A stretch of 64,000 bases of DNA from a virus (IMGVR_UViG_3300028151_000001:6095-70094); one strand, 5' to 3'. Numbered from the stretch's first letter, positions 7,967 through 56,054 are shown. A program made the numbers and translations. Notes: generated by a model from the letters alone, not told the origin.

Positions 7967-8383
7967 CTATTTGCCTAAACAACTGGCATTCTTCTTTGAT
8001 TCTATGGTGTTTTTGACAGGGTATTTATGTTGCTGTGTAAAATAGTCATCAATTTCCTCTAAAAGAACCCCTACACCAGCTACAGCTGTCAGTGTGTTGT
8101 TTGTATTTGCAAACTCTTTCAGATTACTAAAACCAGATGCTTCCAAGAAGAGATTGACGTCATAATTAGCCTTCTTAGCCACACGTCTCATATATTTGAT
8201 ATCTGTAATCGGATACCACCATCCGGGAAGCTTACAAGAATACTTTGATGAGAGCACACTCCAATGCTGTTGGTCAGCGTATACAGTCTTAAGATGTGTA
8301 CGTGCATATTGCTGATCAGCTTCACGTTTAAGCTTGGCTTGTGCACGTTGCTCTTCAGTCATCGGGATGAAGGTTGTGTTCAT
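7967..8383 (-). CDS. hypothetical protein
   Basis: ORF track; GGAG SD. Confidence 0.75.
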   Translation of the reverse strand: MNTTFIPMTEEQRAQAKLKREADQQYARTHLKTVYADQQHWSVLSSKYSCKLPGWWYPITDIKYMRRVAKKANYDVNLFLEASGFSNLKEFANTNNTLTAVAGVGVLLEEIDDYFTQQHKYPVKNTIESKKNASCLGK

Positions 8384-19308: not shown

Positions 19309-19512
19309 TTACTCGCTTGGGTTCTCTGGCAGGGGCATCCAATGTGTGATGTCTTGAACAACAATATTGTGGCATTGTGATTTTGTCCAGTCTTTCCACA
19401 AACCCTCGGAATATGCCATGCAATTAACAGCCCCATCTGCATAAACAAGAACCCAAGCAGACTTATCTTTTGGACAAGGATATCCACTTTCTTTAATACT
19501 TACCCATCCCAT
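19309..19512 (-). CDS. DUF551-like protein
   Basis: W.S.KE..P......VLV ... ITHWMPLPE signature. Confidence 0.8.
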   Translation of the reverse strand: MGWVSIKESGYPCPKDKSAWVLVYADGAVNCMAYSEGLWKDWTKSQCHNIVVQDITHWMPLPENPSE

Positions 19513-19555
19513 ATTTATCTCCCCTCAATTATCGACAATCTGCCGTTGTGCAATC

Positions 19556-19584
19556 ATGATACCAAGCTATTTTGTGCATTGCAA
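19556..19584 (-). promoter_or_regulatory. sigma70-type promoter heading the leftward block
   Basis: TTGCAA-17 nt-TATCAT on minus strand. Confidence 0.7.
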
Positions 19585-19630
19585 GGGGCTGACTGCATTT
19601 ATTTGTGCGAGAGGTTTGTCGTGGTGTGGC

Positions 19631-19660
19631 TTGACAGGGGATAAAGGGGGGGTGTACATT
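19631..19660 (+). promoter_or_regulatory. possible sigma70-type promoter for the rightward block
   Basis: TTGACA-18 nt-TACATT, divergent from the 19556 promoter. Confidence 0.5.
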
Positions 19661-19851
19661 GGTTGGAGATTTGGAGGTGGGCTAGGTTAAATAGTTGATC
19701 ATTTTTTGTACTATAAAATCCTAATCTCCTCTACAGCCCTTACAGACCGGGGCTTAAGCAAATAAATGTTATACAATACAACCTACCTATCTGTATCTAT
19801 CTACCAGATATCTTATAGGGCTTAATACAGAGATTTTAACAAGGAGAGAGG

Positions 19852-21204
19852 ATGATATATGAATTAAAGGATATGAATGAGGTAGAGAGATACATGCTTA
19901 CTCTATGCTCCAAGGATTCATATCTCTACTACCATAAAACAAAGATGTATGAATCTGTAGTCGTAGAATTGCTATCAAAGACAAAGGATAAATGGGAGAA
20001 TGCGGTAAGATGGTTTGTAACCAATACAGCCAGAGGTTTGAAGCATAAAGCCCATGCTATGAATGTGTCTCTTCTTTCCAACTACTACTCCAAGAACGTA
20101 TGTGGTATTGGATACAGGAATGTTAAATCATTACTTGACTTACTGGAGTCAAAAGGTTATATTCACATCTATAAAGGGTTTGTAGAAGAGTGGGAAGTGA
20201 GGGATAAAAAGCTTGTTCCTGTAAAAGCCTTCCGTTCTGTTGTCCTCTTTAGGAAGAGATACCTTGAGCTTTGGAATGACATACCGGTGGATCTATACGC
20301 TAAGGGCACTGAGCTAGAATTAATTAACCTGAAAACCAGAAAGACAAAAGAAGATATTTCTCTTAAAGGAAAGGCAGGTGTTACAAACATGAGAAAGGAG
20401 ATGGAATTGTATAACGAAAATCTTTACAGTGCTGACATTAAATTCAACGGACAGCCAATTGCTGTTGTTGAATACAAACGTGAGTTTCTTGATAATCTAA
20501 ACTCATGTGGTCGAGTTTTCGCAGCAGGCGGGGGTGTTCAGCTACTTCCACAACGGTATCGTGCAGATTTCCTTACAATTGACAATGAGAGTGTTGTGGA
20601 GCTTGACTTTTCATCAATCCACCCCAACATATGCTATCAATTGATCCACAACAGTGGGCAAGATGTGCGAGGTATTCTTGGTGAAGACTTTAAACCTTAT
20701 GATGCTAAGCTTGATTTTGTAAAAGTAGACTGGATGCTTATTGAACAGCATAAAAAGAAGTTTGGTATTGAGTCTTATGACCCTGTTCGTAACATCGCGA
20801 AGCTTGCTCTGTTGGTGGGCATGAATTGTGTAGACATTGAAGAGGCTATTGGGGCTGTTAGTCAGAAGCTTAAAAATGATTATCAGAAGGATGAGGTTAA
20901 GCGTAAATTTGTTGGATTGGTCAGTAAAGTGCCAGTAAGAGCTATCCTTGAGGCAATCAGGGAACATAACTTTTTGATTGAGGATTATTTCTTTAATGAC
21001 TATGGTGTGCAGCTCCAAAACATAGACAGCAAGATTGCAAGCTCCGTTATCTCAACACTGGTACAGCTTGACATCACTGTGCTGTCTTACCACGATAGTT
21101 TCGTGACAGCAGCAAAGCATGAGAAAGTTTTGAGGCAAGCCATGTATGATGCATGGTCTGATAATTTAAAAGATGCTACATTTGCCAAGGCAGATAAGAA
21201 ATGA
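19852..21204 (+). CDS. uncharacterised family-A polymerase-like protein (PolA/T7-RNAP-type palm, no exonuclease, N-terminal wHTH-like region)
   Basis: CGRVF...VQLLP (motif 2a-like), ELDFSSIHP (motif A), RNIAK (motif B), LQNIDS, SYHDSF (motif C). Confidence 0.6.
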   Translation: MIYELKDMNEVERYMLTLCSKDSYLYYHKTKMYESVVVELLSKTKDKWENAVRWFVTNTARGLKHKAHAMNVSLLSNYYSKNVCGIGYRNVKSLLDLLESKGYIHIYKGFVEEWEVRDKKLVPVKAFRSVVLFRKRYLELWNDIPVDLYAKGTELELINLKTRKTKEDISLKGKAGVTNMRKEMELYNENLYSADIKFNGQPIAVVEYKREFLDNLNSCGRVFAAGGGVQLLPQRYRADFLTIDNESVVELDFSSIHPNICYQLIHNSGQDVRGILGEDFKPYDAKLDFVKVDWMLIEQHKKKFGIESYDPVRNIAKLALLVGMNCVDIEEAIGAVSQKLKNDYQKDEVKRKFVGLVSKVPVRAILEAIREHNFLIEDYFFNDYGVQLQNIDSKIASSVISTLVQLDITVLSYHDSFVTAAKHEKVLRQAMYDAWSDNLKDATFAKADKK

Positions 21205-21428
21205 ATGACATAGATAAATTCTGCCCTTGCTGTGAACAAGGAGAACTTTTCAATAAAAAGAAAACAAGAAAAGCTACATATCTAGGGGTTAAGGGTGAAA
21301 TACTGATGTATTACTCTGTTTGTAGCTACTGTGGAACTGAACAAGCTTGCATGTCTCAAGTAGAAGTAAATGCAGACAATCTGATCTGCTTTCATAGAAC
21401 AGTTGAAAGGTTTGTCTTTAATAAATAA
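21201..21428 (+). CDS. YgiT/MqsA-type zinc-finger protein
   Basis: CPCCEQG...T.KATYLG......Y.VCSYCG; ATGA coupled to the polymerase-like gene. Confidence 0.6.
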   Translation: MNDIDKFCPCCEQGELFNKKKTRKATYLGVKGEILMYYSVCSYCGTEQACMSQVEVNADNLICFHRTVERFVFNK

Positions 21429-21495
21429 TTTCACCAACACTTGACAAATAACTATTGTCTGTGATTAACTAAGTACATAAATTAAACAAAAGAGG

Positions 21496-21681
21496 TTGTC
21501 CACTATGGGCGAAGTAAGTTTTTGTTCACAGTGTGGTCGCCTTGACGGATATTGCGTCTGTGAAATTGAAGTAGAATACTTGGAAGACAGTATGGAAGTG
21601 TTTAGGGTGGAGTGGGCTTTTGAAAGCCTAACTTGCCCAGACGAAACTATGTACAAAACTATTTTACCAAAGTATGAATAA
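21496..21681 (+). CDS. small Cys-rich hypothetical protein (likely ATG 21505)
   Basis: ORF track; CSQCG...CVC; GAGG SD. Confidence 0.6.
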   Translation: MSTMGEVSFCSQCGRLDGYCVCEIEVEYLEDSMEVFRVEWAFESLTCPDETMYKTILPKYE

Positions 21682-21687
21682 AGTGCT

Positions 21688-21716
21688 TGACAGAAACCCC
21701 TAACTGTGTAATAATT
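21688..21716 (+). promoter_or_regulatory. possible promoter upstream of the ncRNA region
   Basis: TTGACA-17 nt-AATAAT (imperfect -10). Confidence 0.45.
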
Positions 21717-21849
21717 AGATATATTGATGGAGAAAAGATATGAATGAAGAGTACGAAGGGTTTTAAAGAGCAACAAATCCTTGGTGATATGGCACGATTC
21801 TAGCAATTTCCATAATGTTTGTTGGTAGGATGAGAACAAGGATAAATTA

Positions 21850-21963
21850 ATTTGATGTACTTAGTGTGAATGCGGCTGTCTTTGATCCGTTCAACTCGGA
21901 TGTAGAAAGTGGTTTTCCAAAGGCATTGCTTAGCTAGTCAGGTGCAATTCCTGAACATCAAAT
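21850..21963 (+). ncRNA. tRNA-like structured RNA with a nested T-arm/D-arm insert
   Basis: ATTTGATGT/ACATCAAAT terminal stem; TCAGG-TGCAATT-CCTGA T-arm; inner ATCCG-TTCAACT-CGGAT and GAAAGTGGTTTTC hairpins closed by GTCTTTG/CAAAGGC. Confidence 0.5.
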
Positions 21964-22440
21964 GGGTTCGCACTTCACAAAACATGCTTAGGCTGAGTGG
22001 GTGTGACGCTGCCAGAGTTGGCATATGCAGCTATGATGCCGATAAGATTAGTCTTACGGTAGAACTCAAAACTAAAAAGACTGAACCGTCCCTATCAAGT
22101 GGTAGGTTGTCTTCTTGCCTGTAACAAGGCTAGTCCATGACAGTAAAGAGTTTTAATTCGGGATCTGTTTAGAAAGTCAGAATGCGAGCTACACGTGAGG
22201 ATGTTCAACTCGAAAGCTAATTTGGCCCTCCATTAGCAAGTAGAGCACAGTCGAGTTCTGATAAAGTCGTCTTACAAGAAACAGCGATAAGGTAATTACT
22301 CATCCTTATGTATGACTTGTAAGGTGCAATAATTTAGATTAGCTTGTCTGTCTATTTTAGCTGTACAGCTAATAGTGATGATTGAGCTAATAATGATTTG
22401 ACCCCCCAACACGAAGAATCAATTCTATAAAGTTGGGATT
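21964..22440 (+). ncRNA. candidate large structured non-coding RNA
   Basis: No credible ORF; dense short stems (GCCA-GAGT-TGGC, GCCT-GTAACA-AGGC, GCTAAT/ATTAGC, CTTACAAG/CTTGTAAG enclosing ATAAGG/CCTTAT, palindrome TAGCTGTACAGCTA). Confidence 0.4.
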
Positions 22441-22451
22441 CACCGCTGATA

Positions 22452-22624
22452 AGAGTCTTCTCCTACTCTGACTCAGTACTTAAAGACCTCAGAGGTTTCT
22501 CCTCCCCTTAAGGTCTTTCATGTTCTTGTGTCTTGCCCTCTCCTCTCGGCATGAGAACATTTTCTAAATAATCTTGTTGTTTATTAACGATATTGCCAGT
22601 TAGCTGGTCAGGATTATTTAGAAA
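22452..22624 (+). ncRNA. tandem hairpins with CUCCU-containing loops followed by a 16-bp stem
   Basis: Stems at 22452-22469, 22482-22518, 22520-22560 and 22561-22624 read directly from sequence. Confidence 0.5.
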
Positions 22625-22637
22625 ATAATATTCCTCA

Positions 22638-22740
22638 TGTGTATTTACTTGGTCTCATGGGTTCGTCTATTGGTTAAGACTCCACAAGCCGCCTCGTCGC
22701 AGGATAAAGCTGGTTCGATTCCAGCATCAAGAAGTACACA
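22638..22740 (+). tRNA. degenerate (pseudo) tRNA; anticodon not assignable (GTC/Asp-like remnant possible)
   Basis: Perfect T-arm GCTGG-TTCGATT-CCAGC, D-arm GTCT-ATTGGTTA-AGAC, acceptor CTTGGT/ATCAAG; poorly paired anticodon arm, no CCA. Confidence 0.5.
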
Positions 22741-22862
22741 GTAGAAATATTATTTAATAGTAAGAAGTCCCCTCTGTACAACAAGCGTCTCTTACATCTT
22801 AGGATTTAGTCACAGCATATTCGTTCTGACTAAACTCCGAACAATTGCGTAGGAATAATGAT

Positions 22863-23267
22863 ATGGCTAAGCAACCGCATACTCCAGCACAGCGTGCAAC
22901 ACGCTTCGATGGAGAGAAAAGCAATAGGAATGAAAAGGGTAATTCTTCTACCCGCATTAAGAAGAGTAAGCTTCGAGAACTTGCTGATAAGCTTCTGGAA
23001 CGTCAAGATATTGCGCTTCAGCTAGTGGATAAAAGTCTGGCTGGCACAGATGTTAATGCTGACAGCGTTGCTTCTGCCAAGTGGGTGCTGAACTCGATTG
23101 TAAGCGTAATTAAAAATGCTACGGCGGAAGAGCTTGGTTCATTTAATGCCCGACTGAAAGGCAAAAGGGATGAAGAAGAAGCTGAACAGACTCCGAAAGA
23201 GATTGCTGCTGAATTGAAGCCTCGTCTTAGTCTGGTTTTTGTTGACCCGGATGATAATGAAGAGTAG
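22863..23267 (+). CDS. putative terminase small subunit
   Basis: N-terminal TRFDGEKSNRN..GN motif typical of TerS-like proteins, helical body, upstream of terL; track start 22845. Confidence 0.5.
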   Translation: MAKQPHTPAQRATRFDGEKSNRNEKGNSSTRIKKSKLRELADKLLERQDIALQLVDKSLAGTDVNADSVASAKWVLNSIVSVIKNATAEELGSFNARLKGKRDEEEAEQTPKEIAAELKPRLSLVFVDPDDNEE

Positions 23268-23405
23268 TATCTGAAAGAATTAGGCCGCTGCAACGGCTTA
23301 AAACATTGTAACAGTAAGACCTCTATAGCAAGTTCCTTGATGAAGGGTTTGTTACAATGTCCCTGTTGCAGACATTAAGAAGCTTGACTATAGAGGTCTG
23401 ATAAA

Positions 23406-24065
23406 TTGGCAAGATTAGTTTCTGGTTTAGGTATTAATGATTTAGATTATGCTGTTGCACCCGTTATTAATGGAAAACAAGAACGTTGCCCATTCTATTT
23501 TAGATGGAAACATATGCTAACTCGATGCTCAGATATGTATAAAGAAAAAGATCGGGGAGTTTATGCAGATAAAGAAGTTCATCCAGAGTGGCTTAGAGCC
23601 AGCAACTTCAAATCTTGGATGGAGAATCAACATTGGCAAGGTTATGATTTAGATAAAGATATTCTAGTACCGGGCAACAAGATATACGGTCCAGATACTT
23701 GTGTGTTTATCCCACAGTGGCTAAACAAGGTAGTTATTTGCGCAGACAAAGCTAGAGGAAAATATCCTCTGGGTGTTTCTTATTTAACTGATAAGAATAT
23801 GGTGAATGAAAAATCAAAACCTTTCGTAAGCACGGTTAATATTTTTAAGGAAGGTAAATCTATCCTTGAGTATTTGGGTGTCTACTCTACACCAGAAGAT
23901 GCACATAAAGCGTGGCAAGTAGCAAAGATTGAATGTTTACAAATATCTATTGAAAGATATAAGTTAGAAAAAGGCTATGATCTAAGGGTAGAAAATTCCC
24001 TGCAAGCAAGGATTCAAAAGATAAAATTAGAAGCTGCTCAAAATTTAGAAACATTGAGCTTGTAA
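23406..24065 (+). CDS. HNH-type homing endonuclease with AP2-like C-terminus
   Basis: GLGIND...WKHMLTRC...YDLDKDIL..GNKIYGPDTCVFI; paralog of 2366 and 62057. Confidence 0.8.
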   Translation: MARLVSGLGINDLDYAVAPVINGKQERCPFYFRWKHMLTRCSDMYKEKDRGVYADKEVHPEWLRASNFKSWMENQHWQGYDLDKDILVPGNKIYGPDTCVFIPQWLNKVVICADKARGKYPLGVSYLTDKNMVNEKSKPFVSTVNIFKEGKSILEYLGVYSTPEDAHKAWQVAKIECLQISIERYKLEKGYDLRVENSLQARIQKIKLEAAQNLETLSL

Positions 24066-53360: not shown

Positions 53361-53463
53361 TAATTAAGAAAGTGACTAGGCTTCTAAGTATAAGGATTTG
53401 ATTCTACAGGCCACGTAGAATAAGGGCTGTAGAGGTGGTCATGTATAAAGGGAATACATAGAA

Positions 53464-55938: not shown

Positions 55939-56054
55939 TTGTTCAAATCCTCCGTAAGTTCAGATGTAATTTTATACCTTGTATTGTTTTTCATATCAAC
56001 CTCCAAATCATAGATAAAAGAAAATCCGCAAGGGCTTGTAGGCCGATGCGGATC

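Follow-up and report, generated by a model that had tools for sequence, protein, structure and literature searches.

The DNA examined here is positions 19,513 to 22,862 of a 64,000-nucleotide (nt) stretch of a viral genome (IMGVR_UViG_3300028151_000001:6095-70094; this whole stretch is called the window, and coordinates refer to it unless another locus is named). It begins at a junction near 19.5 kb between a leftward run of small genes and a rightward gene block. In order, it holds a gene for a 450-amino-acid (aa) polymerase of the divPolA2 type, two genes for small cysteine-containing proteins, a promoter and about 1.1 kb that appear to specify a series of small structured RNAs, designated E1, TL1, A2b, A3, B, X, C and T (Table 1). 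The virus record to which the window belongs is complete, at 89,104 base pairs (bp). The nearest isolated relative found is an Ounavirinae phage, and a blastn search with positions 19500-23300 returned zero matches among 50,697 phage records, so that no cultured phage carrying these RNAs is in hand. An earlier reading made from the sequence only had proposed that the polymerase, a zinc finger and the RNAs form one system. Every part that it described is present: the 450-aa gene, the zinc finger coupled to it through ATGA, the Cys microprotein, the promoter and the structured stretch devoid of open reading frames (ORFs).

Table 1 Features of the locus and its immediate 3' neighbour
Feature	Position	Strand	Remarks
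Divergent intergenic region between leftward and rightward blocks	19513..19851	.	sigma-70-like site 19631-19660; motif CCTCTACAGCCCTTA at 19727-19741
divPolA2-type minimal family-A-like polymerase, 450 aa	19852-21204	+	phrog_4756, E=1.7e-76; AlphaFold (AF2) model; invariant motifs
Zinc-ribbon protein, 75 aa, YgiT/MqsA-type finger	21201-21428	+	start codon and polymerase stop codon share bases (ATGA)
Cys-rich microprotein (CxxC...CxC), 58 aa from likely ATG 21505	21505..21681	+	ORF open from TTG 21496 (21496-21681)
Sigma-70-type promoter with extended -10, heading the RNA operon	21687-21715	+	TTGACA, 17 nt, TG-AATAAT; 11/12 positions
RNA E1	21777-21843	+	predicted 7-bp closing stem, 3-bp hairpin and long hairpin; 6-bp loop-loop pseudoknot AUAUGG/CCAUAU
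RNA TL1, tRNA-like	21850-21963	+	predicted 9-bp terminal stem; 3' T-arm-like hairpin 21938-21954; inner arm with a second, 21885-21901
Module A2b, weakly conserved	21964..22069	+	nhmmer matches in L224, L239, L245
RNA A3, ~90 nt	22070-22160	+	3' end AAGGGUUUUAAUU; 7 sequences
RNA B, ~160 nt	22172-22334	+	predicted multi-stem 5' domain with GGCCCUCC loop; 3' domain closed by invariant GGUGCAA
Hairpin X	22336..22398	+	inner 14-bp palindrome; in L019/L064 only
RNA C, ~230 nt	22396-22624	+	5' AUUUGACC (GUUUCACC in relatives), then H1-H5
RNA C hairpins	H1 22405-22437, H2 22445-22477, H3 22482-22518, H4 22520-22560, H5 22561-22624	+	CU-rich apical loops; H5 long, forked
RNA T, tRNA-like	22640-22738	+	predicted extended terminal stem, D-arm-like hairpin, variable middle arm, canonical T arm GCUGG-UUCGAUU-CCAGC 22709-22725
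134-aa gene ('ORF140'), charged protein	22863-23267	+	3' of the stretch examined; most constant neighbour downstream of RNA C

A predicted operon of small structured RNAs

Between position 21682 and the ATG at 22863 we found no credible ORF; the longest candidate, 71 codons from a GTG start, was blank in Pfam and PHROG. Rfam returned zero families at gathering score in the window, and its matches at E ≤10 were at chance level (ar14 at 0.55, sR52, MIR6288, TMV_UPD-PK3 and DnaX). Relatives were collected as loci around divPolA2 homologues from IMG/VR, JGI metagenomes and Logan and were compared by profile (nhmmer) and BLAST searches. Nucleotide matches to successive parts of the 21.7-22.8 kb region were found in relatives whose polymerases are 25-50% identical. 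In the window the modules lie in the order E1, TL1, A2b, A3, B, X, C and T over ~1.1 kb, and each is single-copy in this genome. The sequence-only reading had suspected a promoter near 21688, and the best sigma-70-type site of the region is indeed located there. This promoter is kept at locus L019, comparable ones stand 35-60 nt 5' of E1 in L027, L228, L032, L014 and L227, and in relatives E1 is usually the first element 3' of a sigma-70-type promoter. The ORF-free stretch at 21.7-22.8 kb thus appears to be an operon of conserved small structured RNAs behind its own sigma-70-type promoter, and E1, B and C, each with a fold well supported by comparison, make up at least three RNA families absent from Rfam.

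For E1, 98.3% of cells are paired across 10 distinct sequences and 13 of the 24 pairs show compensatory changes, compared with 0-3 in slid controls; none of 500 shuffles reached the observed values. The pseudoknot carries one compensatory change (G-C to A-U in L179), and the covariance model of E1 (R1) scores 88 bits in the window. A regular-expression search for E1 also gave four identical matches (L226, L229, L231 and L232), which we rejected as false since their fold differs. Ten distinct sequences were likewise available for B, in which 91.6% of cells are paired over 37 predicted pairs (35-43% in slid controls) and 23 of the 37 are compensatory, a value again reached by 0 of 500 shuffles. 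The hairpins of A3 also covary, with compensatory changes at four of nine predicted pairs, and its structure is resolved in part. A further hairpin module, ACGGATAYTACGTTCATACGCGGCGTARTACGTTGAC, absent from the window, occurs 3' of E1 in L019 (~8040-8090), L227, L228 and L018.

The fold of C recurs in its relatives although its stems do not. Each of 20 distinct homologues, folded singly, gave the 5' GUUUCACC, H1, H2, a CUUAAAG linker, H3, H4 and a forked H5. Among these sequences each hairpin has 11-14 differing outer stems, every one of them paired, a comparison made from independent minimum-free-energy folds rather than a statistical covariation test, MAFFT alignments of C being structurally wrong. 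The loops, by contrast, stay the same: that of H2 is CUUCCUCCUCU-like and those of H3 and H4 read CCUCUCCU in most homologues. No conserved ORF was found in the 20 sequences. Three hairpins with CU-rich loops occupy 22445-22560, and three or four loops overall resemble an anti-Shine-Dalgarno (anti-SD) sequence. A regular expression for C proved too loose: most of the matches listed look like chance, and the profile confirmed L156, L171, L179, L146, L153, L180, L215 and a few others.

Two further elements have the outline of a transfer RNA (tRNA). In TL1 the 3' T-arm-like hairpin abuts the 3' strand of the terminal stem, as in tRNA; two phages with polymerases of 35-45% identity carry the element at 90% identity or more, and it has two compensatory pairs. 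In L018 the homologue of T differs by a compensatory change in its T stem and has a middle arm unrelated to that of the window. Both elements have acceptor-like and T arms only, lacking an anticodon arm. The tRNA model RF00005 found no match in the window at E ≤10, and ARAGORN, which also left TL1 and T uncalled, detected zero tRNA genes under default settings, whether within the window or across the full 89,104-bp genome, and, under relaxed settings, only odd calls with 4-base or 2-base anticodons. TL1 and T are therefore tRNA-like elements and not tRNAs. The sequence-only reading had noted two tRNA-like shells and anti-SD hairpins. These features, seen here as the elements at 21850-21963 and 22640-22738 and the hairpins with CU-rich loops, are real in that conservation and covarying pairs exceed chance. 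T-like elements not called as tRNA also lie inside tRNA arrays of 20 and 23 genes in L255 (a 19.7-kb contig) and L256 (10393-10449 on the minus strand of a 239-kb viral contig); they have the D-arm and T-loop sequences of T and a terminal stem of ~18 bp.

In relatives, tRNA genes lie 0.5-3.5 kb 3' of the homologous polymerase gene, as the sequence-only reading had stated for related viruses, and the same slot holds one to six of them mixed with RNA modules. C follows a tRNA after 0-1 nt in L016, L023, L031, L245 and L179 and after 9 nt in L239. In G015 (L253) it follows TL1 after 5 nt where other phages have a tRNA, so TL1 stands where a tRNA stands elsewhere. From these junctions we infer a punctuating role in processing for tRNAs and tRNA-like elements alike. 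Module order varies between loci, and in L019 the flanks are 94% and 91% identical to those of the window while ~570 nt between them are missing, which indicates that the modules behave as cassettes and not as domains of one large RNA. A single large ornate RNA was rejected for the related reason that relatives carry the modules separately and in differing subsets. The phage in question has lost all canonical tRNAs and kept the non-tRNA RNAs. That it dropped every tRNA yet retained the RNAs argues that these are selected for their own sake, and the suggestion that non-canonical structured RNAs fill the tRNA slot holds, with the addition that they are conserved in relatives. Three low-scoring matches to the tRNA model (28-49 bits), uncalled by ARAGORN, were also seen ~1.4 kb 3' of the divPolA2 gene of G012 (G012:C1:75147-75433, minus strand) and may be further non-canonical tRNA-like genes.

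A proposed role for RNA C

The host RNA polymerase would transcribe the operon from the promoter at 21687, and the precursor would be cleaved by host RNase P, RNase Z and RNase E, either at tRNAs or at TL1 and T, which are tRNA-like. The three or four single-stranded CCUCUCCU-type loops of C could then pair with Shine-Dalgarno (SD) regions, by analogy with the cuckoo/alpha-r14 RNAs and RNAIII. Such pairing would repress or re-rank translation initiation in trans, possibly also on the gene directly downstream. The loop mutant proposed for C changes CCUCUCCU to GGAGAGGA.

Several observations weigh against this account. The extended complement AGGAGAGG occurs five times in the genome and only twice before ORFs, and the ribosome-binding sites (RBSs) of the phage show no special enrichment. 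For A2b, A3 and X the fold is poorly resolved, and TL1 and T are known from two or three distinct sequences each. The existence of discrete RNAs, their processing sites and their abundance are all inferred from sequence. Finally, C lies at most ~80 nt 5' of the 134-aa gene in ~10 distinct genomes, including G014, in which the cluster is remote from the polymerase. This nearness makes a cis-acting leader a serious alternative to a trans-acting small RNA (sRNA).

Under that alternative, C and perhaps the whole array would be the 5' leader of the 134-aa gene and the late operon, with the CU-rich loops masking or presenting its RBS. No U run follows H5, so that transcription probably continues past it, as a leader would require. 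However, C is 2.6-2.7 kb from the 134-aa gene in L023, L031 and L241 and 1.2 kb from it in L179, where E1 is placed 3' of the gene; T intervenes between the two in the window and in L018; and C abuts the 3' ends of tRNAs, which suggests that it is released by processing. We thus regard a leader function as rather unlikely, if still the strongest competitor to an sRNA acting in trans. The 134-aa gene itself has homologues at 50 loci, and its product belongs to no Pfam or PHROG family and has zero similarity to the DUF5681 protein of Pseudomonas phage PAK_P3. It may be a functional partner or a regulated target of C. An HNH endonuclease gene (23406-24065, plus strand; phrog_953, E=3e-75) is inserted just 3' of it.

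The polymerase, the small proteins and their relation to the RNAs

The 450-aa protein matched zero Pfam families, RNA polymerase (RNAP) families included, but its metagenomic homologues number more than 100 and lie mostly on 84-93 kb contigs. When IMG/VR was scanned with a single protein no match emerged, and the IMG/VR loci came from an alignment-based scan. Residues D252, H257, K317, N325 and H414-D415-S416 are invariant across 31 homologues. The AF2 model has a predicted local distance difference test (pLDDT) score of 90.8. In Foldseek it matches family-A DNA polymerases at E ~3e-6, and on realignment yeast mitochondrial RNAP, T7 RNAP and PolA enzymes score equally (Z 12-14, ~230-265 residues aligned), the matches to the PolA/single-subunit RNAP fold spanning residues 62-450. 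These results support the description of the gene as a minimal polymerase resembling both PolA and T7 RNAP. The N-terminal 160 residues, modelled alone, reached a pLDDT of 88.9; a fold search with this domain gave weak winged-helix-like matches at Z 5-5.8, under the stated noise level of the tool, and we treat that likeness as a lead and not a result.

The divPolA2 family was described as having an active-looking palm and an unassigned N-terminal domain, without an exonuclease domain or canonical thumb, and was proposed to be a repair DNA polymerase or an RNA polymerase with a variable gene neighbourhood (Yutin et al., Virol J 2024, PMC11348598). By sequence and model, the 450-aa protein is a member of this family. 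Like the described proteins, it is ~450 aa long, carries motifs A, B and C in its palm and fingers, lacks a 3'-5' exonuclease and a canonical thumb, has a globular N-terminal domain that fits no known family, and matches DNA polymerase I and mitochondrial/T7 RNAP in structure at Z ~12 (PMC11348598). Also shared are the presence of a regular replicative polymerase in the same genome, here a PolA (PF00476, in an 813-aa ORF elsewhere), and of paralogues within one genome. A second, divergent divPolA2 paralogue lies outside the window in the same genome (G000:C1:82888-83979, plus strand; a 441-aa open frame). A tblastn search reached 115 Rheinheimera Barba records (E=2e-7, residues 215-435), a record-level match in which AUR84708 was not singled out. 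The barbavirus protein is only 25% identical to the window protein over these residues, and the regular polymerase of barbaviruses is PolB, whereas that of the window genome is PolA. In IMG/VR 3300011768_000001 the divPolA2 match is split between the adjacent loci L034 and L036 (residues 1-212 and 218-450, ~10 nt apart), which could reflect a masked stretch or a gene break.

Motif C of the protein reads HDS, as in T7 RNAP. By the numbering of Klenow and T7 RNAP, His257 lies at the site of the PolA steric-gate Glu, and Asn325, eight residues after the motif-B Lys, at that of T7 RNAP Tyr639, where both known enzymes have Tyr. The protein does not qualify as a T7-like single-subunit RNAP, an enzyme type marked by a promoter-binding N-terminal domain, a specificity loop and a Tyr639-type residue in motif B: such RNAPs share the HDS motif but are ~880 aa long, against 450 aa here, and differ in that Asn325 is invariant at the Tyr639 site. 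With this pattern of HDS, His257 and Asn325, the choice between ribonucleoside and deoxyribonucleoside triphosphates is not readable from the sequence, and we regard divPolA2 here as a likely accessory enzyme with an intact palm. The motif CCTCTACAGCCCTTA stands ~110 nt 5' of its start codon (19727-19741, plus strand) and recurs at ~53419-53433 on the minus strand, with a variant near 56030-56041 (minus strand), in each case at an intergenic block boundary; it could be a phage-specific regulatory or promoter element.

The 75-aa protein had been read as carrying an MqsA-type zinc finger, and it does match YgiT/MqsA profiles, with weak scores (TIGR03830, E=3e-6, below the cut-off; YgiT_finger, E=0.011; Pfam MqsA, E=0.044). 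Its CxxC...CxxC pattern aligns to the N-terminal finger of MqsA (TIGR03830, TIGR03831, PF15731). It covers positions 1-62 of the 127 in the MqsA profile and scores 27 bits against a cut-off of 61.8. Unlike the MqsA antitoxin, the protein lacks a helix-turn-helix, all of its scores fall under curated cut-offs, and the next gene encodes the Cys microprotein, with no MqsR-like toxin gene nearby. A homologue of the 75-aa protein was found in just one other genome (G015), between a divPolA2 paralogue and TL1-C, a distribution that speaks against the finger as part of a system. The Cys microprotein has homologues at 19 loci, each directly 5' of an RNA or tRNA cluster, including that of G014.

The notion of one working system would have the polymerase, the zinc-finger proteins and the RNAs cooperate, divPolA2 using the RNAs as templates, primers or partners or making them as products. 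In its favour, the parts are co-oriented and adjacent: of ~30 distinct relatives in which the polymerase is at least 40% identical and the downstream sequence extends for at least 5 kb, ~20 have modules or tRNAs 0.5-2.7 kb 3' of divPolA2 on the same strand. In the two-paralogue genomes G002, G005 and G015 the cluster follows one particular paralogue, and G015 repeats the order paralogue, homologue of the 75-aa protein, TL1, C. Because a cluster stands behind a divPolA2 gene in about two-thirds of relatives and prefers one paralogue, there may yet be a functional tie. HDS in motif C and the invariant His that replaces the steric-gate Glu make an RNA-related activity conceivable, and the weak winged-helix likeness of the N-terminal domain would fit the same idea.

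Against it, the cluster owns a host-type promoter, here and in at least five relatives. The complete genomes G011 and G013 have one divPolA2 gene each and zero modules, zero E1 and zero tRNA genes, and the cluster lies 28 kb from the single divPolA2 gene in G003 and 35 kb from it in G014. The closest homologue (L003, 69% identity) is followed by only small ORFs across 7 kb, second paralogues, including that of the window genome, have no RNA module adjoining, and the distant divPolA2 phages Aeromonas PhAER-4 and Pseudomonas M1 have none of the modules. A search of the genome for a T7-style repeated promoter found no 11-mer present more than five times. In G014 the remote cluster retains the order Cys microprotein, A2b, A3, tRNA-Thr, C, 134-aa gene. 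The cluster keeps company with its flanking genes, that of the Cys microprotein on the 5' side and the 134-aa gene on the 3' side, more consistently than with divPolA2. Given also the host-type promoter, the adjacency is more likely explained by conserved gene order, and divPolA2 is probably just a frequent neighbour of the RNA cluster.

The survey of homologues therefore bore out one half of what had been predicted, the conservation of the RNA region with its covarying modules, and contradicted the other, the linkage to the polymerase gene (G011, G013, G003, G014, L003). A functional link between the polymerase and the RNAs is not supported; the relation is positional and not obligatory, and we consider the single-system proposal unlikely. 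Our preferred reading, held with some reserve, is that the stretch combines three things in frequent synteny at the head of the rightward block: divPolA2, two small zinc-binding proteins and a ~1.1-kb structured-RNA operon.

Remaining readings and known counterparts

A bolder conjecture, which we rate as quite improbable, is that the locus is a translation take-over cassette of this lineage replacing the phage tRNA set, in which C is a multivalent mimic of the 16S anti-SD, TL1 and T are tRNA mimics and divPolA2 is a dedicated RNA-synthesising enzyme. If so, C would sequester SD-led mRNAs of the host or protect ribosomes against 16S-targeting toxins, TL1 and T would interact with defence nucleases or with the tRNA enzymes of the host, and divPolA2 would make or amplify the RNAs late in infection. 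Slightly less credible again is that the RNAs are decoys against host defence, with TL1 and T drawing tRNA-targeting nucleases and C drawing toxins that cut the 16S rRNA 3' end, the anti-SD of which a MazF toxin reportedly removes. TL1 and T do keep acceptor and T-arm geometry without an anticodon arm, and C holds several copies of a sequence like the 16S 3' end. However, nucleases that cut anticodon loops would find no target in TL1 or T, the loops of C are CCUCUCCU and not the CCUCCU of 16S rRNA, and the cluster has no associated defence or anti-defence gene. That the region is a decaying, functionless remnant of a tRNA array is barely tenable: the genome has no tRNA, relatives have tRNAs here and two elements keep T arms, but the modules are kept in phages whose proteins are 25-50% identical and beside intact tRNAs, compensatory changes at paired positions contradict decay, and E1, B and C do not resemble tRNA.

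The divPolA2 family itself was already described (2024, PMC11348598). Since divPolA2 is linked to the RNAs by position only, and not in every genome, its function is to be sought independently of them. Under the preferred reading of three syntenic components, C would be a compact RNA through which the phage may control translation initiation, and E1 offers a small, putatively pseudoknotted fold suited to structural study. To our knowledge, non-tRNA small RNAs in the tRNA clusters of lytic phages are almost unstudied, the known cases being T4 bands C and D and the PAK_P3 sRNAs.

GOLLD and ROOL are large ornate phage non-coding RNAs that occur beside tRNA genes and are Rfam families. The locus shares with them a long non-coding phage stretch adjoining or interleaved with tRNA genes but differs in being a string of separable cassettes and not one large fold; their Rfam models gave no match in the window at gathering score or at E ≤10. 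A closer counterpart in setting is PAK_P3, whose sRNA1 and sRNA2, encoded within or next to its tRNA genes, reach high levels late in infection and are cited alongside the T4 band C/D RNAs (PMC4933390). In PAK_P3, a lytic myovirus of ~88 kb, the tRNA cluster heads the late block, which is the same genomic position as that of the RNAs here, and the T-loop sequence GGUUCGAUUCC of element T also occurs in sRNA2. Profiles of all eight modules nevertheless found zero homology in PAK_P3, and tblastn with divPolA2 found no match there. The PAK_P3 RNAs are known from expression, without comparative structure, whereas those of the window are known in the reverse way.

For C the nearest analogues are the cuckoo/alpha-r14 sRNAs of Alphaproteobacteria and RNAIII, which carry anti-SD loops (PMC4615179). 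C is not a member of the cuckoo family, as it scores 19.9 bits with RF02344 (E=0.55) against a gathering score of 58.8. The cuckoo RNAs have CCUCCUCCC in the loops of their 2-4 hairpins, compared with CCUCUCCU or CUUCCUCCUCU in C, and C adds the 5' GUUUCACC, H1, the CUUAAAG linker and the forked H5 and is phage-encoded beside tRNA genes. Nevertheless, the two share adjacent hairpins with freely varying stems and a recurring CU-rich, anti-SD-like loop motif, and variable stems with a constant anti-SD loop are the design expected of an RBS-occluding RNA (PMC4615179).

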